This document shows, piece by piece, positions 4,968-56,961 of a stretch of 64,000 nt of DNA. Under the pieces are notes generated by a model that saw only the letters and a program-made list of their open reading frames with translations, did not search any database and was not told the DNA's origin. This stretch comes from Enterobacteria phage vB_EcoM_IME540. Position 1 is the first letter of the stretch. The number at the start of each line of letters is the position of its first letter. Made by a program: the position numbers and the translations under genes. Location: the sequence record MT150133.1; one strand, 5' to 3'.

Positions 4968-5320
4968 TTAGAGTTTAATCCTCGATTGTATGAATCAACG
5001 AGTCTGTCTACCATAGACGCGCACATTTCTTTGTACTTTTTATCAGATGGAATACATTCAGTAACGTTTAGACGTTGCTCGTATCTTTTAGAAAGAGTTT
5101 TCTCTTTCATTCGACGATGCTCTACGTCGTTCTGCCCATCTTTAAAAGCAGCCGTGATTTTTGAACTGAATTCGATAATGCATTCAGTATTACTCGGATG
5201 ACAATAATCTTTTGCTGTACGGGTAGCATACTCGACAATTGAATTATTACTATCATAAACTTGTGACGCTAATACTCCCGGAGCAATCAACATAAGCGCT
5301 ATAGTCATCTGCTTAATCAT
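4964..5320 (-). CDS. putative secreted/periplasmic Cys-containing protein (118 aa)
   Basis: N-terminal signal-peptide-like MIKQMTIALMLIAPGVLASQ; four Cys in mature part. Confidence 0.45.
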   Translation of the reverse strand: MIKQMTIALMLIAPGVLASQVYDSNNSIVEYATRTAKDYCHPSNTECIIEFSSKITAAFKDGQNDVEHRRMKEKTLSKRYEQRLNVTECIPSDKKYKEMCASMVDRLVDSYNRGLNSK

Positions 5321-5884
5321 TTAATATACCGCCTCAAACATCTTTTTAGATTTTAGATAATTGGCCTTTTCTAGAACTTCAGAAGCATATTTACTGCCTG
5401 CTTCGACGTTCCAGCCCGCATTATAAGAAGCAATCGCTTTTCTCAGGTCACCTTTGTGAACATCAATCCAATAAGACAGTTCAATGTAGGCCCAAGAGGC
5501 ACTGTTCTGTCGTTTTTGGACCATACGAATTATTTCTTTGTCTGACATCTTCCAACCTACCTGTTGAACACGACTTCTTAACGTAGGCAAGTAATTTTGG
5601 AACATGCCATAAGCATGGTGCTTATCTTTATTTAAACCCTGATTAATTCCGGCAGATGATTCCTGCCATAGTAATCCGGCCATAATATATCCTAATCCTT
5701 TTTGATTAGGGGTTTCTTTGAACTTTCCCGACTTTTGGTATTGTTCACCGAAAGCATACGCATAATGTAAATTATCGAGCTGGGTTTCTGTAAATACGGG
5801 TTCTGCTGCACTTACAGAAAACGAACCACACATAATAGCCGCTATTAAAGAATATTTAAGTTTTTTTAGAAAAATCATAATCAA
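5321..5884 (-). CDS. putative secreted lytic transglycosylase (SLT-domain-like)
   Basis: Signal-peptide-like N-terminus; motifs LLWQESS ... AYGMFQ ... ASYNAGW match the E-S / GLMQ / AYNxG pattern of SLT domains. Confidence 0.5.
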   Translation of the reverse strand: MIMIFLKKLKYSLIAAIMCGSFSVSAAEPVFTETQLDNLHYAYAFGEQYQKSGKFKETPNQKGLGYIMAGLLWQESSAGINQGLNKDKHHAYGMFQNYLPTLRSRVQQVGWKMSDKEIIRMVQKRQNSASWAYIELSYWIDVHKGDLRKAIASYNAGWNVEAGSKYASEVLEKANYLKSKKMFEAVY

Positions 5885-6590
5885 TAAGTCCTCGGTAATC
5901 TACATTAGGGAAGCCGTTCTTAATTGCGATTTTACTAAATCTTCCACACTTGAGCTTATTATTATCTACCCATAATTTATATAATTGTGAATACATCGGT
6001 TCATGCCATATAGGGGATTTACGCAAAGAGGCTTTTTTCCTTTCTATAGTTTCTTTAGAATTTTGTATGGCTTTAAATTTTTGTCTATTTTCAGGATTTT
6101 CAAAATACTTAACCCGTTTTTCAGACATTTTAGCTTTTACTTTTGGCGAATTTAAAATTTCTTTGAGCCGTTCTTTAGAGCCTTCCTTTTCAAAATACTT
6201 TATTAAAGCCATTGAATGAGCAGCCCTATTTTCCTTTTTAGAGAAAAATAAAATTTTATTAATAGATTGCAATTTTGAAAATGATTCTTTAGCCAACTTA
6301 TAATTTTCAGAATCTACAAAATAAGACCTTTGTTTTGAATTTGAAGTAGAGCTCATATTTAACCAGGCAAAATTCAACCCATAGTGGTTTGGATTAGCTT
6401 TGGCTAGATACATATGGGCCAAATAATGTTCATCAGCATAAAGCTCAACTAAATTGTCTTGAGTGTCAGGACCACCAACACAACTCGGAATTATATGATG
6501 CTTTTCTGTATAGGCGTCATTAGGTGTATCCCTAGATAAGGCCGCATTTATTATTTTATAGTAGTCATATGGATATTTTATAGTTTCCAT
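5856..6590 (-). CDS. HNH-family homing endonuclease-like protein (mob-like)
   Basis: N-terminal EKHHIIPSCVGGPDTQDNLVELYADEH (HNH motif); basic C-terminal region; C-terminal KIAIKNGFPNVDYRG module shared with the ORF at 3387-4124. Confidence 0.65.
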   Translation of the reverse strand: METIKYPYDYYKIINAALSRDTPNDAYTEKHHIIPSCVGGPDTQDNLVELYADEHYLAHMYLAKANPNHYGLNFAWLNMSSTSNSKQRSYFVDSENYKLAKESFSKLQSINKILFFSKKENRAAHSMALIKYFEKEGSKERLKEILNSPKVKAKMSEKRVKYFENPENRQKFKAIQNSKETIERKKASLRKSPIWHEPMYSQLYKLWVDNNKLKCGRFSKIAIKNGFPNVDYRGLIDYDFSKKT

Positions 6591-6597
6591 ACTGTCC

Positions 6598-7056
6598 TCA
6601 CAAGTAAATTACTTTCGTGCTGGTTTTACCTTCTAAACGTTTAGAGTTAACAAATGCCATACGACATTTAAGGGAATATCCTTTATCAGGATGTTTACGG
6701 TCTACTGTCATACCTAGCCATAAGGTTTTATCGGTAATTTCGAGACGCAATGGCCGATACACTTTACCAGGGACAATTTCGGATTCTACATCAGGCAGAG
6801 GTTCCTGGATTAAGAATTCATGGATTTCTTTAACATGGTTATGGAGTTGCTTGAATAAAGCAAAAACGTATTTTTCGTCGATTTCACGTTGGATAGCACG
6901 GTCCAACAAGTGGTTAGAGTACTTAATAAAGAAGGCTGGGACTCCGCTCTTAATGGCGGCTTTTTTGATGGACGTATTCAGTTCACGGAATTCGGTTTCG
7001 AACTGACGACGTAATTTATTGCGGCGGATGAATACTTCTGAATTAATTTCTGACAT
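6598..7056 (-). CDS. regB: RegB-like endoribonuclease
   Basis: 152 aa; EVFIRRNKLRR...HLLDRAIQREIDE...LEITD..LWLG resemble T4 RegB as recalled; position between tk and denV as in T4. Confidence 0.6.
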   Translation of the reverse strand: MSEINSEVFIRRNKLRRQFETEFRELNTSIKKAAIKSGVPAFFIKYSNHLLDRAIQREIDEKYVFALFKQLHNHVKEIHEFLIQEPLPDVESEIVPGKVYRPLRLEITDKTLWLGMTVDRKHPDKGYSLKCRMAFVNSKRLEGKTSTKVIYL

Positions 7057-7073
7057 TTTGTAATCTCCTGTAG

Positions 7074-7113
7074 TTGATAGGTCTATAGTACCACGTCTAC
7101 AGGAGATGTAAAC
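7074..7113 (-). promoter_or_regulatory. early promoter cassette (PeSL-like) copy 2, upstream of regB
   Basis: Same core; flanked by inverted repeat CTCCTGTAG / CTACAGGAG. Confidence 0.6.
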
Positions 7114-7117
7114 TGCT

Positions 7118-7327
7118 TTATTCTTGGAATGGGGTAAGTTTTCCAGCAGCTGAACAAATTTCTACCAGTACAGGGTAAAACTCTTTCACTTGTTCAAGGC
7201 GTTGGGCTGCATACTGTACTTCACCTTCTTCGAGACAAGCCATTTGGTCGTCAAGCAAGTATTTGTGGTAGCCAGTACAGGCTTCACCGATGATACGCTG
7301 GAAATCTTGTAAACTTTCAATTTTCAT
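7118..7327 (-). CDS. hypothetical small protein (start taken at ATG overlapping upstream stop, ATGA)
   Basis: ORF track 7118-7369; internal ATG at 7327 gives translational coupling with upstream ORF. Confidence 0.4.
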   Translation of the reverse strand: MKIESLQDFQRIIGEACTGYHKYLLDDQMACLEEGEVQYAAQRLEQVKEFYPVLVEICSAAGKLTPFQE

Positions 7328-7605
7328 CAGTATTTTTCCTCGGGTTGGAAAACGGAACGACACGCCCACATACTTGCTTCTTTCAGACGGTCAATTGCAT
7401 TACGAATCTGGGTGATGCGTTCATGAGCCTGGTCTAGTTCTTGTTCAGAAACCTCTTCGGTATCTAAGTTCATATAATGAGTAACATGTTCTTCTTCCAG
7501 AGCTTTAAACATTAACCCAAGACGAACTTCAGCATCTTTGATAGCGTTTACTTTACCGATTTTATCGTCGGTATGCGGCTTATAACCCTTGATATCTTCA
7601 ATCAT
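7327..7605 (-). CDS. hypothetical small protein (92 aa)
   Basis: ORF track; position in regB-denV interval. Confidence 0.45.
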   Translation of the reverse strand: MIEDIKGYKPHTDDKIGKVNAIKDAEVRLGLMFKALEEEHVTHYMNLDTEEVSEQELDQAHERITQIRNAIDRLKEASMWACRSVFQPEEKY

Positions 7606-7820
7606 TTCACTTCCTCGCCAGTTGCGATATCATATTCTACCAAACGAAGGCCTTCAGTCCAACCTTGCACGGAGATATAGGTAGTCGGGTAAATCATTTC
7701 TTTACCATTCCACCGACCGCCATCCCAGACTTCCAGAAAGTCTTGTTCACCTGGTCCATTAAGCCATTCAACAAATCTTTTCAGAGCTTCTTCAGAACCT
7801 TCAATTGTCAATTTAGACAT
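7602..7820 (-). CDS. hypothetical small protein (72 aa)
   Basis: ORF track; 4-nt overlap with neighbour. Confidence 0.45.
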   Translation of the reverse strand: MSKLTIEGSEEALKRFVEWLNGPGEQDFLEVWDGGRWNGKEMIYPTTYISVQGWTEGLRLVEYDIATGEEVK

Positions 7821-8109
7821 ATTTTTTCCAATCAGAAATCATATGAATCTCTTGGTCATAAGTCAAGAGACTACGAGCAATAATACCCTTACAAGGCCCT
7901 GAGATGAACTCGAGAGTGAAGTAAGGAACCTGTTTCATTAATCGGATACTAGGAGCATGACATCTAAAACGAGAGCCCTTAAAGGGCCCTGTCATGAATA
8001 CATATTCCAATGGGTAGAAATAAGCATATTCGAAATTTGCAGTAAGGTCCTCTCTTCGAACCTTACGTGAGAAATAACAGAACTCAAAAAGTTCTTCATC
8101 AGTCATCAT
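7813..8109 (-). CDS. hypothetical protein (start at internal ATG overlapping upstream stop)
   Basis: ORF track 7813-8157; ATG ATG at 8109/8106 coupled to stop of 8106-8633. Confidence 0.4.
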   Translation of the reverse strand: MMTDEELFEFCYFSRKVRREDLTANFEYAYFYPLEYVFMTGPFKGSRFRCHAPSIRLMKQVPYFTLEFISGPCKGIIARSLLTYDQEIHMISDWKKYV

Positions 8110-8633
8110 TGCATTCCTATCACAAAGAACAGAGGCAAAGGCTTGTCGCCTTGGCACATAAATTTATTAATCATTACCTGGTAAGCTTCATAGAACTTAT
8201 CCATCGCTGGAAGGCGCATTGGCTCTTCGATAATAATCAATAATCGAGTAACAGATAGTCCACGATACTTATGGAAATTGTCTTCATCAAGGAAACTGCG
8301 CACAGTATCATAGACAACAAAACCAGGACCTTCGACTTGGAGATGTGGGTGTGCCTTAGAAACCTGTTTTATTACATTACAAATTTCTCGCGAGCGATGC
8401 GAAGAACTCGACATAACAATCACATCATTACCCTTGGAAACCCAATCAGCGGCGAACTGAGCAAGGGCACTTGTTTTACCTGTTTGGCGTCCGCCATCAA
8501 GTCGAAGAGTACCAAACTCTTGCATTCTTGAAGCAGGTTCATACCATGTGTATTGGTCTGAGTCTAAACGTTCAATGGCGCGTTCAGCGAAGGCGTGCAT
8601 TAAGGTTAGATAAATGGGAGTTAAAAATTTCAT
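8106..8633 (-). CDS. P-loop NTPase-like protein
   Basis: 175 aa; Walker A GGRQTGKTS and Walker-B-like LLIIIEEP. Confidence 0.5.
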   Translation of the reverse strand: MKFLTPIYLTLMHAFAERAIERLDSDQYTWYEPASRMQEFGTLRLDGGRQTGKTSALAQFAADWVSKGNDVIVMSSSSHRSREICNVIKQVSKAHPHLQVEGPGFVVYDTVRSFLDEDNFHKYRGLSVTRLLIIIEEPMRLPAMDKFYEAYQVMINKFMCQGDKPLPLFFVIGMQ

Positions 8634-8793
8634 AGTAGTCTCTTAGTGGTGGGGCCATTCCTTGGCACATAATTCGTCCATGTATCCGTATGTAAACCCT
8701 TTACCGCACTTGGGCTCGACCTTATTACAGGTAGGGAAAGGTCCATCACTCAGAGGACGCGACGTTCATGAGGAGAGGGCCGGCTTGCCTTTA

Positions 8794-9093
8794 TTAGAAA
8801 GAACCAGAACCTCTAATTGTGTTCTGGCGACCTTTATTTTCTAATTCGGAGTGGTCGATTTCATATGCTTGTGCTACGCCAAAGGCCTTTTTAACTTTAG
8901 CTAAAGAACCTTTAGATGTAACAATATTAAAAGTATTACCTTTGGTAAAATCAACAAAATCGACTTGTACGCCCTGTTTACCGAGGCTTGCTACAATAGC
9001 ATCAACATATTCTTGGTCTAAATTGCCTTGAACTCCAATTTGAAATGCTTTAGGAGCTTTGGCTTCTGTGATAAATTCTTGATAAGTTTTCAT
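8794..9093 (-). CDS. internal-protein-like (capsid-targeted) protein, ipII position
   Basis: N-terminus MKTYQEFITEAK matches the T4 IP capsid-targeting sequence MKTYQEFIAE; adjacent to denV as ipII is in T4. Confidence 0.6.
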   Translation of the reverse strand: MKTYQEFITEAKAPKAFQIGVQGNLDQEYVDAIVASLGKQGVQVDFVDFTKGNTFNIVTSKGSLAKVKKAFGVAQAYEIDHSELENKGRQNTIRGSGSF

Positions 9094-9136
9094 TGTTATT
9101 CCTTAAGTTGATAGAAGTATTCTATCACGGATTTAA

Positions 9137-9553
9137 TTAAGCGTAAATAGCCTTGCCATAATGTTTGTACCAGGTAGGACGCTGTGCAATTTTTTCATCC
9201 AAACGGGTCTGAGATATAGCAATAGAAGCTTCGTGTGGAGTATAGTCACCACGGAATTCCTGAGGAATGCCACTAATGTCCTGGACAGTAGTATCCTTGA
9301 TATTAAAACCACGTTTTAAACATTCGGCTATAAGCTCAATTTGTCGCTTACGTAAAAATTCAAGCTTATCGTAAAAGAATGTAACATGGCCTGTGCCAAG
9401 GATAAAAGTAGGACTGATTTTGAAATCACGGACACGTTTACCATTAGCAACATGCTTACGAACTGCACCGAAAACACGTGGTAATTCACGATATTCAGCC
9501 ATTAAGTGTTGGTCGGCCAATTCAGATACTAAGGTAAGGTTGATACGAGTCAT
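9137..9553 (-). CDS. denV: endonuclease V (pyrimidine dimer DNA glycosylase)
   Basis: 138 aa, near-identical to T4 DenV as recalled ([34 protein letters not shown]...). Confidence 0.93.
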
Positions 9554-9570
9554 TTTTTAATCTCCTGTAG

Positions 9571-9610
9571 TTGATAGGTCTATAGTATCATGCCTACAGG
9601 AGATGTAAAC
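9571..9610 (-). promoter_or_regulatory. early promoter cassette (PeSL-like) copy 3, upstream of denV
   Basis: Same core; flanked by inverted repeat CTCCTGTAG / CTACAGGAG. Confidence 0.6.
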
Positions 9611-10009
9611 TTATTTATAGGTTTTCATCCAATTCTTGAACAAAGCTGCGACGTCTTTCTCTTTAACGTTCAGTTTAACGTCCAACATTTTACCACCGGC
9701 AGCACGTGTCTGACGAATCTTAGCAGTACCGGTTTCGCCATTCCACTCAACATAATACTGTCCGGTGTTCATTGCAATACCGTCGCCGTAGTCTTCATTT
9801 TTAGAAGTGGTGAATGCCAGCTTCATAGTCTTAGATACACGAGCCTGCATGCCTGTCTGAAGGGCATTACGAACGCGAATAACCTGAGGAGTGGCCTGGG
9901 TCAGGTTTTCATTCAGTTCTTCAGTGAACTCTTCAGATTCAAACATCGCCAAAAGTTCTTTAGATGCAGGAATTACATTCTCTGCGATAAATTCATTATA
10001 AGTTTTCAT
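9611..10009 (-). CDS. internal-protein-like (capsid-targeted) protein, ipIII position
   Basis: N-terminus [11 protein letters not shown] (capsid-targeting-like); between denV and e. Confidence 0.6.
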
Positions 10010-12731: not shown

Positions 12732-12771
12732 TTGATAGGTCTATAGTATCACACCTATAGACCTTGTACAC
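12732..12771 (-). promoter_or_regulatory. early promoter cassette (PeSL-like) copy 4
   Basis: Same core with GTGTACA -35 variant; inverted repeat AGGTCTATAG / CTATAGACCT. Confidence 0.55.
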
Positions 12772-12783
12772 TGTTTTGTGCAA

Positions 12784-18007: not shown

Positions 18008-18047
18008 TTGATAGGTCTATAGTATCATGTTTAAAGGAGGTGTAAAC
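18008..18047 (-). promoter_or_regulatory. early promoter cassette (PeSL-like) copy 5
   Basis: Same core; lies between terminator 18069-18099 and gene start 17983. Confidence 0.6.
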
Positions 18048-18068
18048 ATCTTTTTTAAACTTTTAGAA

Positions 18069-18952: not shown

Positions 18953-19027
18953 TGGTATCCCGCCCTGGGATCGAACCAGGACCGCAAACTTAGAAGGATC
19001 GTATGCTATCCATTACACCAGCGGGAC
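18953..19027 (-). tRNA. tRNA-Arg (anticodon UCU), CCA encoded
   Basis: Reverse complement GTCCCGC...GATCCTTCTAAGTTTG...CCTGGTTCGATCCCAGG GCGGGAT ACCA folds as cloverleaf: 7-bp acceptor, T-arm with TTCGATC loop, anticodon loop CTTCTAA; one T-T mismatch in anticodon stem. Confidence 0.7.
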
Positions 19028-19739: not shown

Positions 19740-19810
19740 TGGCCCTGGGTGGAATCGAACCACCATCCAGCGATTATGAGTCGCTCGCTTGACCGTCCAG
19801 CTACAGGGCC
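19740..19810 (-). tRNA. tRNA with anticodon CAU (Ile2-type or Met); CCA not encoded
   Basis: Reverse complement GGCCCTG TA GCTGGACGGTCAAGC G AGCGA CTCATAA TCGCT GGATG GGTGG TTCGATT CCACC CAGGGCC A; perfect anticodon and T stems. Confidence 0.75.
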
Positions 19811-21208: not shown

Positions 21209-21481
21209 TTATTTTAAATAAATTGCATATTTTTTATAACCAGCCGTCTCGTGGCGCAGCCCTTTTTCATTAGCAAAACGTTCAATATTGTTAATTTGAT
21301 TCTGGTCGAGTTCTGAAGTATCAAATACAAAAAAGTTTCGCTTATTGCCTAAAGTTACGTGATTAGTCAAATCGATGTTATAGAGATGATTTATATTATC
21401 AATCATGGTCTTAACAGATTTGTTAATTTTTACTTCTTCATTAAGAATAGATTCAGCGATAAATTCTTGGTATGATTTCAT
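21209..21481 (-). CDS. internal-protein-like (capsid-targeted) protein
   Basis: N-terminus MKSYQEFIAES (capsid-targeting-like). Confidence 0.55.
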   Translation of the reverse strand: MKSYQEFIAESILNEEVKINKSVKTMIDNINHLYNIDLTNHVTLGNKRNFFVFDTSELDQNQINNIERFANEKGLRHETAGYKKYAIYLK

Positions 21482-21482
21482 T

Positions 21483-21707
21483 TTATTCAGCGCCAGCAGC
21501 TTTCAAAAGTTTTTTAAGATTGGCTATGCCGCCAGCAGAAAACGTGACCTTGCCACCTTTTTCATTGATAGAGCCAGTCAATTTAGCAAGCTTATCACTA
21601 GGGACTTTTTTAAAATCAGCCAGTGTGCCATCAAAGGTTTTTGTAACAATTGGCAGTTCATCTTCATGTCTTTTAGCTTCGGTGATAAATTCTTGATAAG
21701 TTTTCAT
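21483..21707 (-). CDS. internal-protein-like (capsid-targeted) protein, ipI position
   Basis: N-terminus MKTYQEFITEAK; located next to 57B as ipI in T4; promoter cassette upstream. Confidence 0.6.
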   Translation of the reverse strand: MKTYQEFITEAKRHEDELPIVTKTFDGTLADFKKVPSDKLAKLTGSINEKGGKVTFSAGGIANLKKLLKAAGAE

Positions 21708-21733
21708 TTTGATTTCCGTTTGGTTAGTTTGTT

Positions 21734-21773
21734 TTGATAGGTCTATAGTATCATGCCTATAGACCTTGTAAAC
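21734..21773 (-). promoter_or_regulatory. early promoter cassette (PeSL-like) copy 7, upstream of ipI-like gene
   Basis: Same core; inverted repeat AGGTCTATAG / CTATAGACCT. Confidence 0.6.
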
Positions 21774-21784
21774 AACTTTTTAAA

Positions 21785-56635: not shown

Positions 56636-56902
56636 TTATGCAATCTTAACTCGGCGGTTGATGATATCACGGAAGTCAATACGATTTTCTTGGATTTTCA
56701 GCCAGTTACCAGATTTGTCTTTGGTATGGGTAGAGTATTCACCGTTCCACCAGAAGTCGGTAGCATAAGCCATGGCTTCGTATTTCTTAACTAAGGCATT
56801 CACTGCATTACCATTAGGATTGTTACCGAATTTTTCTACCAGAGCTTTGATGTCTTTATCAAGAGCGGAAAGAGTAGTACGAATAAAGTTTAACTTGTTC
56901 AT
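56636..56902 (-). CDS. small hypothetical early protein antisense to capsid module
   Basis: Start at ATG 56900-56902 preceded by GAGGAG; early-promoter cassette (core 56921-56961) immediately upstream. Confidence 0.5.
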   Translation of the reverse strand: MNKLNFIRTTLSALDKDIKALVEKFGNNPNGNAVNALVKKYEAMAYATDFWWNGEYSTHTKDKSGNWLKIQENRIDFRDIINRRVKIA

Positions 56903-56920
56903 TTTTAATCTCCTCATGTT

Positions 56921-56961
56921 TTGATAGGTCTATAGTAACATGTGAGAATCTTGCTGTAAAC
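56921..56961 (-). promoter_or_regulatory. early promoter cassette (PeSL-like) copy 8, in late region
   Basis: Same core upstream of small ORF 56636-56902; back-to-back with gp24 late promoter. Confidence 0.55.

Follow-up and report, generated by a model that had tools for sequence, protein, structure and literature searches.

In the reference genome of bacteriophage T4, the genes regB, vs.3, vs.4, vs.5, vs.6, vs.7, vs.8 and denV follow one another on the same strand, and several of their products have been associated with bacterial immunity. Vs.4, also known as Acb2, forms a hexamer binding three molecules of cyclic GMP-AMP (cGAMP), and acts as a cyclic-nucleotide sponge that blunts the cyclic-oligonucleotide-based anti-phage signalling system (CBASS) (PMC10449767). 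Its residues Y8 and F82 are required for nucleotide binding, and Acb2 is itself the trigger of the Panoptes system (PMC12657218). Vs.3, or TadIV-1, is a dimeric two-helix sponge for the type IV Thoeris signal, N7-cyclic ADP-ribose (N7-cADPR) (Chen et al., Nat Commun 2026, PMC13243611). TadIV-1 homologues comprise a long group of about 90 amino acids (aa), which is active, and a short group of about 70 aa, which fails to inhibit type IV Thoeris; binding depends on the flexible N-terminal loop, and the deletion of residues 2-32 abolishes activity (PMC13243611). Finally, T4 Vs.8 was described as an ATPase-like protein with homology to the ATPase domain of terminases, predicted to occupy the terminase pocket of the immune sensor Avs2; it triggers Avs2 and is toxic when co-expressed with this sensor, and its authors raised the possibility of an anti-defence protein that Avs2 has come to recognise (Evans et al., bioRxiv 10.64898/2026.04.30.721860). 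Here, an array of five small open reading frames (ORFs), designated ORF1 to ORF5 from left to right, was analysed in a stretch of 64,000 nucleotides (nt) of Enterobacteria phage vB_EcoM_IME540 (sequence record MT150133.1), hereafter referred to as the window.

The window belongs to a Dhakavirus-type T4-like phage (a T4-type myovirus), with positions 6500-9600 exhibiting 99.4% nucleotide identity to Escherichia phage vB_EcoM_FB and 99.5% to QL01, and the five-ORF array is the Dhakavirus version of the T4 vs.8-vs.7-vs.5-vs.4-vs.3 cluster. That this counterpart of the T4 genes serves counter-defence, at least in part, is the best explanation of the whole and one that we hold with good confidence. 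An earlier note on this DNA had described five translationally coupled ORFs between regB and denV; its coordinates coincide exactly with those of the ORF list, to which the minus strand, missing from the note, can be added for all five. The array is indeed flanked by regB (6598-7056) and denV (9137-9553), and synteny with T4 regB-vs.3...vs.8-denV bears out its proposed location in the "vs" gene region, the interval between ORF5 and denV also holding 160 nt of non-coding DNA and a gene for an internal head protein (8794-9093). The junctions, all of which had been given as ATGA or 4-nt overlaps, are of this kind in two cases out of four, ORF5/ORF4 (ATGA, 8106-8109) and ORF3/ORF2 (ATGA, 7602-7605), the other two overlapping by 8 nt (ORF4/ORF3, 7813-7820, ATGTCTAA) and by 1 nt (ORF2/ORF1, TGATG, at 7327). 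A Shine-Dalgarno-like purine run can be read in the sequence 5-11 nt 5' of every ORF start, and the start of ORF5 is fixed by an in-frame TAA 12 nt 5' of its ATG.

All five ORFs are under purifying selection, with ratios of nonsynonymous to synonymous substitution rates (dN/dS) of 0.04-0.34 in codon-wise comparisons with relatives. Because of these ratios, together with matches of all five to PHROG families (E 1e-29 to 5e-69) and their occurrence in public deposits, they are considered real genes rather than chance ORFs. The biology of the array has mostly been described before, and the same proteins were deposited from many Dhakavirus genomes: the exact sequences of all five are already public, from Dhakavirus and related phages (Bp7, QL01, WG01, E33 and others), mostly under the title "hypothetical protein".

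The 92-aa ORF2, which had been put forward as a candidate Acb2 from its position, is by homology an Acb2 orthologue. It matched PF24729 (Acb2_Tad1_hairpin) with 57.7 bits against a gathering cut-off of 27 (E 1.3e-15, profile positions 1-58 of 58), and aligned end to end with the structure of T4 Vs.4 (PDB 7UQ2_A; E 2.6e-28, query 1-92 on chain 2-89). T4 Vs.4, with 88 aa, is of the same length class and occupies the same place between vs.5 and vs.3. The N-terminal 31 and C-terminal 19 residues of both proteins are nearly identical and include the cyclic-dinucleotide contact residue Y8 and the dinucleotide-stacking Phe (F86, equivalent to T4 F82), differences being found in the hairpin tip (about residues 33-72), which has diverged from T4 Vs.4 and is 4 residues longer. 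As in T4, a hexamer of ORF2 would be expected to sequester cyclic nucleotide signals such as 3',3'-cGAMP, thereby leaving CBASS effectors inactive.

The adjacent ORF1 is homologous to a second characterised sponge, Vs.3/TadIV-1, a relationship that the earlier note had missed. ORF1 shares 44% identity with residues 25-92 of T4 Vs.3 and matched PDB 9WIW_A, the homologue from phage UPEC07 (E 1.1e-13), over chain residues 34-101 only; T4 Vs.3 matched the same chain from end to end. The protein begins at the residue aligned with K24/K25 of T4 Vs.3, at the start of the helical core. It shares with TadIV-1 a homologous two-helix dimerisation core and, like T4 vs.3, its gene directly follows acb2 with a 1-nt stop/start overlap, but ORF1 is devoid of the N-terminal loop of about 23-32 residues that forms the N7-cADPR pocket (R17/R18 in T4; R18, R19, S21 and S23 in UPEC07). 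According to our own alignment mapping, the basic patch K57/K60 of UPEC07 corresponds to L25/Q28 in ORF1. Judged from its sequence, ORF1 is a short-group member of the family, a TadIV-1 homologue without the feature that defines the known activity. Since the pocket loop is missing, ORF1 most likely cannot sequester N7-cADPR, by analogy with the short homologues tested elsewhere, which were inactive and among which ORF1 was not identified. The protein may either bind another ligand or be a relic.

These properties would change if ORF1 were translated from a GTG at 7369, yielding a product of 83 aa whose extra N-terminus (VGVSFRFPTRGKIL) restores the ligand loop of TadIV-1. The frame is open, the GTG is present and the extension has Arg and Lys residues, but this N-terminus results from reading the conserved 3' end of acb2 in another frame, and the same out-of-frame "TRGKIL" also precedes the Met of T4 Vs.3, whose gene has the same 1-nt stop/start overlap with acb2. 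Relatives do not conserve the upstream frame: one of them (L019) has a stop codon in it, while another (L130) has a GTG start exactly at the position of the ATG. The extended form was discarded on these grounds and is considered very improbable.

ORF5 is Vs.8: its 175 aa correspond to the first ATPase subdomain of a T4-type large terminase, present as a protein on its own. The Walker A and B motifs noticed in the earlier note are GGRQTGKT (aa 47-54) and LLIIIEE (aa 131-137), and their key residues are invariant in the family: in an alignment of 47 homologues, D46, G48, R49, G52, K53 and E137, which sits after the hydrophobic strand, are found throughout and Q50 in at least 90%, together with a conserved C-terminal motif, LPLFFVIGxQ. 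The statement that this ORF has no T4 counterpart did not survive, since it is 39% identical to T4 Vs.8 (E 4e-37, query 3-175); it also aligned with phrog_1488 over its entire length (1-175 on 1-177 of 177). We accordingly give next to no credence to the view that ORF5 is a novel P-loop NTPase with a new accessory function in the phage. This view could invoke the fact that no Pfam family exceeded its cut-off with ORF5 (Terminase_6N reached 13.5 bits against a cut-off of 22), but it is contradicted by the end-to-end homology to T4 Vs.8, by the annotators of phage JS10, who had already named the protein Vs.8, and by the exact ORF5 protein having been deposited from at least 15 phages.

Several comparisons link the Vs.8 family to the terminase. 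Weak Terminase_6N matches occurred in 31 of the 47 family members (best E 2.4e-6), and an AlphaFold2 model of ORF5 built from 46 sequences (predicted local distance difference test score, pLDDT, 88.9) displays a single alpha/beta domain, for which Foldseek returned weak generic P-loop matches only. Profile alignment with hhalign of the Vs.8 family against residues 1-360 of the T4 large terminase gp17 gave a probability of 82.9% (E 9e-6), pairing GGRQTGKT with SRQLGKT (gp17 161-167) and IIIEE with IYIDE (251-256). ORF5 exhibits an additional strand conserved glutamate (ASCE) fold closest to terminase ATPase subdomain I, a terminase-type Walker A with Arg-Gln before Gly-Lys-Thr, and a Walker B followed by the catalytic Glu. 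In contrast to gp17 (PDB 2O0H), ORF5 is without ATPase subdomain II and the nuclease domain, and the Vs.8 family has its own invariant C-terminal motif, LPLFFVIGxQ. A search among 1.84 billion proteins revealed 65 representatives of the family (E up to 1e-3), all of 93-259 aa, and no full-length terminase was found among them. The same homology was reported independently by Evans et al. With the Arg, Gln and Lys of Walker A and the Glu of Walker B intact, ORF5 probably binds and hydrolyses ATP.

The two remaining products, ORF3 and ORF4, are orthologous in sequence and position to the T4 early proteins Vs.5 and Vs.7. Pairwise identity between ORF4 and T4 Vs.7 is 47%. The initial match between ORF3 and T4 Vs.5 (58 aa) was limited to the first 30 residues, and TBLASTN analysis revealed that the remainder of ORF3 matches T4 DNA in a different frame. 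Compared with the intact gene of a T4-like contig (L017, 4891-5103), vs.5 of the T4 reference (NC_000866, 4347-4558) has a 1-nt deletion (GCGAGTGG in T4 versus GCCGAATGG in L017), a frameshift that cuts its product to 58 aa; the intact Vs.5 of T4-like contigs has 71-73 aa and is 57% identical to ORF3, which is itself intact in the window. Once this frameshift is corrected, ORF3 can be recognised as the Vs.5 orthologue and all five ORFs thus have T4 counterparts. The name "Vs.5" is carried by the cluster of ORF3 in one record (phage VR7). In some relatives Vs.5 is extended C-terminally (up to 163 aa) and Vs.7 N-terminally. Scans of ORF1, ORF3, ORF4 and ORF5 against Pfam, NCBIfam and PADLOC returned nothing above cut-off. 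A match of ORF3 to PDB 7RDR, a "circular tendon repeat protein" (E 8e-6), was treated as a low-complexity artefact, as no stretch passed alone.

The composition of the cluster varies among phages. The GrcA-like gene vs.6 of T4 has no copy in the window cluster, and phage JS10, whose annotation already uses the names vs.4, vs.7 and vs.8, has no ORF1, with an ORF2 75% identical and an ORF4 and ORF5 96-97% identical to those of the window. The cluster being mosaic in JS10, its genes are regarded as exchangeable modules and not as parts of one machine. All in all, the observation made in the earlier note was partly confirmed, and its interpretation partly supported.

As to expression, the five genes are tightly packed and would be read as one unit, leftwards on the minus strand. 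The stop/start overlaps (4, 8, 4 and 1 nt) are consistent with the coupled translation suggested by the earlier note and make it likely; the five products would then be made together from a transcript starting 5' of ORF5. A sigma-70-like promoter candidate was found there (Table 1), at a position where the T4 sequence is not promoter-like. The best promoter-like site of the region lies inside ORF4 and may provide a second transcript start for ORF3-ORF1 (7866-7838). Transcription as a single unit fits the use of the vs.8 promoter in the TadIV-1 study, in which Vs.3-Vs.8 were expressed from "the promoter of vs.8" (PMC13243611). At the other end of the array, the cassette before regB and the spacer upstream of denV (9551-9618) share 91% identity over 68 nt. 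Spacer cassettes of about 50-70 nt, at 7054-7121 and 9551-9618, combine an early-type promoter (TTTACA-16-TACTAT) with an inverted repeat (ATCTCCTGTAG...CTACAGGAGAT), and weaker copies occur near 1684-1743, 12732-12777, 18008-18056, 21734-21779 and 56900-56943. They resemble the "promoter-early stem-loop" elements, for which a part in the shuffling of modules among T4-type phages has been proposed.

Table 1. Features of the five-ORF array and its borders, in window coordinates
Feature	Position	Strand	Characteristics
Early-promoter/stem-loop cassette before regB	7057..7117	-	TTTACA-16-TACTAT with upstream TG; downstream boundary of the array
ORF1, predicted short-group Vs.3/TadIV-1 homologue	7118..7327	-	69 aa, helical core only
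ORF2, predicted Acb2 (Vs.4), cyclic-oligonucleotide sponge against CBASS	7327..7605	-	92 aa
ORF3, full-length Vs.5 orthologue	7602..7820	-	72 aa, phrog_1986, E 1.5e-35
ORF4, Vs.7 orthologue	7813..8109	-	98 aa, precomputed Pfam PF26834
Possible internal promoter in ORF4	7838-7866	-	TTGACT-17-TATGAT, 10/12 consensus, best of the region; 18 nt 5' of ORF3 start
ORF5, Vs.8 orthologue	8106..8633	-	175 aa, minimal single-domain terminase-type P-loop ATPase
Sigma-70-like promoter candidate	8669..8696	-	TTTACA-16-AATTAT, 36 nt 5' of ORF5 start, 9/12 consensus
Structured RNA element	8685..8792	-	Spacer 5' of ORF5; covariance model 56.3 bits, E 5.6e-12

The spacer 5' of ORF5 holds a structured RNA element. 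Its 37-nt core (ACCTGTAATAAGGTCGAGCCCAAGTGCGGTAAAGGGT) is identical at 35 of the 37 positions between the window and T4, whose adjoining Vs.8 proteins are only 39% identical, and two helices, P1 and P2, close an invariant loop of about 35 nt (ACCUGUAAnAAGGUCGAGCCnAAGnGCGGUAA). A covariance model built from 13 sequences recovered 54 copies. In the model alignment, compensatory changes were observed in all five P1 pairs and all three P2 pairs, 94.4% of the cells were paired as compared with 50-58% when the partners were slid by one column, and the covariation score was 0.526 against 0.178 in shuffles (a value reached by 0 of 500), these figures having been obtained with an alignment that was fitted to the model. 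The helix beside the interior loop occurs in several lineage versions with fully complementary changes, namely AAAGG/CCTTT, GGGAA/TTCCC, GGGAG/CTCCC, GAGGG/CCCTC, GAATG/CATTC, GAGTG/CACTC, GGAAC/GTTCC and AAAGC/GCTTT. The structure emerged only from comparative analysis, the single-sequence fold of the 160-nt spacer being no better than shuffles (z 0.2). A pseudoknot between the P1 interior loop and the 3' tail, proposed by eye, was dropped, with a mean longest duplex of 3.8 nt versus 3.6 nt in shuffles.

BLASTN analyses identified this element in 1,021 phage records, non-T4-like phages included. It is located in the spacer 5' of a tRNA cluster in the Vequintavirus isim, in the spacer after the endolysin gene in phage Ivi (44.9 kb), and inside or adjoining tRNA arrays, on the same strand, in contigs of about 46-70 kb recovered from viral and metagenome scans. 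By our own reading, a promoter of the TTGATA-17-TAAAAT type reaches to within a few bases of the first helix in isim-type phages and in Ivi. Copies were located in T4 (L002, 5849-5939), isim (L003, 1468-1551), Ivi (L004, 1470-1548) and L021 (5333-5409). The window tRNA-Arg(UCU) and tRNA-Met(CAU) genes lie at 18953-19027 and 19740-19810 on the minus strand, and genes for these two tRNA species are neighbours of the RNA element in a number of unrelated phage contigs. A degenerate tandem second copy occurs downstream of the first in two Enterobacter/Klebsiella-type T4-like contigs, L027 (about 5050-5130) and L030 (9104-9187), with a changed core (AAGGTCAGCCCGCGGCGGTAA in L030, AAGGCCAGTCCGCGACGGTAA in L027); the L030 copy matched the model with 25.7 bits, and that of L027 was read in the sequence only, with no model match. 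The window copy had no match in Rfam at E up to 10, and Rfam scans of the stretches with the isim, Ivi and L021 copies returned weak matches only, which were judged due to chance. A search of 5,426 E. coli genomes gave no match to the element sequence. A scan of genome contigs for the RNA core returned 93 matches, all non-enteric, largely in high-GC taxa and mostly in metagenome-assembled genomes, a number that we roughly estimate to be within a few-fold of chance for an 18-base pattern in 596 Gb. In view of these results with E. coli and with the genome contigs, the element is regarded as not host-derived.

The RNA element also bears on the start of Vs.8. In several Vs.8 homologues, including the annotated T4 Vs.8, the N-terminal "extensions" read the DNA 5' of the conserved Met in three frames, and codons 1-44 of the annotated T4 vs.8 (NC_000866, 5782-5913) overlie the conserved RNA element. 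The 44 extra N-terminal residues of T4 Vs.8 are thus probably not protein, the true start being the conserved Met (MRTFLTG in T4, MKFLTP in the window). Two T4 reference annotations, the frameshifted vs.5 and the first 44 codons of vs.8, therefore look wrong. A sixth gene at 8630-8749 (39 aa from a GTG, 38 aa from an ATG at 8746), coupled to ORF5 by ATGA, was considered a less likely reading and rejected, because the same DNA is read in three frames in Vs.8 homologues and the corresponding frame of isim is closed by a stop.

Some neighbouring genes on the minus strand also deserve mention. The internal head protein gene at 8794-9093 matched phrog_2667, and T4 has nothing there between vs.8 and denV. 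Its product and that of a small gene on the other side of denV (9611-10009) have a common N-terminus, MKTY(Q/N)EFI, and related starts were found near 21452-21488 and 21672-21714; the JS10 counterpart of the 9611-10009 protein is annotated as hypothetical. An HNH-type homing endonuclease gene (244 aa, 5856-6590; phrog_655, E 2.5e-36) lies between vs.1 and regB, a position where neither T4 nor JS10 has such a gene, and the megablast match to most relatives begins just past it.

With regard to function, the array is best read as an accessory cluster enriched in counter-defence, in which the mechanism of Acb2 would be clear and which would further comprise one disabled or retargeted sponge and one terminase-like ATPase visible to host sensors. 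A number of points weigh against this reading. A counter-defence mechanism can be confidently assigned to one of the five products only, Acb2, and ORF1 is without the feature required for the only known activity of its family. For Vs.8, a single phenotype is known, the triggering of Avs2, which harms the phage and was observed on co-expression of the T4 protein in a preprint, an analogy made across only 39% identity to ORF5. The promoter call at 8669-8696 is a consensus match only and, given the stronger promoter-like site inside ORF4, transcription may not be organised as one unit. Finally, the mosaic content of the cluster argues against an obligate five-part machine. According to another proposal, the genes besides acb2 are ordinary dispensable genes of a "hyperplastic region", with unrelated roles (such as nucleotide or DNA metabolism for Vs.8) and packed together by genome compaction only. 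Stop and start codons overlap in many places along T4-type genomes, and the mosaic content, with vs.6 in T4 but not in the window and ORF1 not in JS10, can be explained in this way. However, the family of ORF1 has a proven anti-defence member, and the Vs.8 family, made up of small stand-alone proteins of T4-like phages only, fits an accessory role in host interaction better than one in core metabolism; the proposal is a possible one, if doubtful.

A further explanation would be a dedicated anti-defence island, with each of the five proteins, and possibly also the RNA 5' of them, directed against a separate host immune system and with Vs.8 as a terminase decoy occupying the terminase sensors. 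Anti-defence genes tend to cluster, two adjacent genes of the array come from proven sponge families, and Vs.8 is predicted in the terminase pocket of Avs2, with an anti-defence origin suggested by its authors. Such an island is nevertheless unlikely: when Vs.3-Vs.8 were tested singly, only Vs.3 was active against type IV Thoeris (PMC13243611), T4 Vs.8 activates Avs2 in co-expression rather than blocking it, and ORF3 and ORF4 have no similarity to known anti-defence proteins and no clue from PADLOC or Pfam. A further elaboration, which we consider quite improbable, would regard the RNA as an undescribed structured family common to T4-like phages, rV5-like phages and genomes or contigs of about 45-70 kb (with its own promoter or inside tRNA operons in the last two), forming a counter-defence module with the five proteins, in which the RNA would act, as a decoy or a sponge, on a conserved host factor or immune nuclease, and Vs.8 would be a terminase mimic. 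The explanation retained here is that of a T4 vs.8-vs.3 counterpart of which at least a part serves counter-defence.

An anonymous array of small ORFs is thus resolved into named T4 orthologues, two of which come from experimentally proven families of anti-defence sponges. Conserved, co-located and tightly overlapped with the sponge genes, Vs.5 and Vs.7 are reasonable candidates for counter-defence screens; these two uncharacterised proteins and the upstream RNA, which is a separate lead outside the verdict on the five genes, deserve further work. The frameshift in T4 vs.5 and the position of the first 44 codons of T4 vs.8 over the RNA matter for the cloning of these genes. For the biology of the phage, Acb2 should allow it to withstand cGAMP-type CBASS, and the phage may be sensed by Panoptes, which is triggered by Acb2, and by Avs2, which is triggered by Vs.8. 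As its TadIV-1 homologue is of the truncated kind, type IV Thoeris should be effective against the phage, a testable prediction of its host range.

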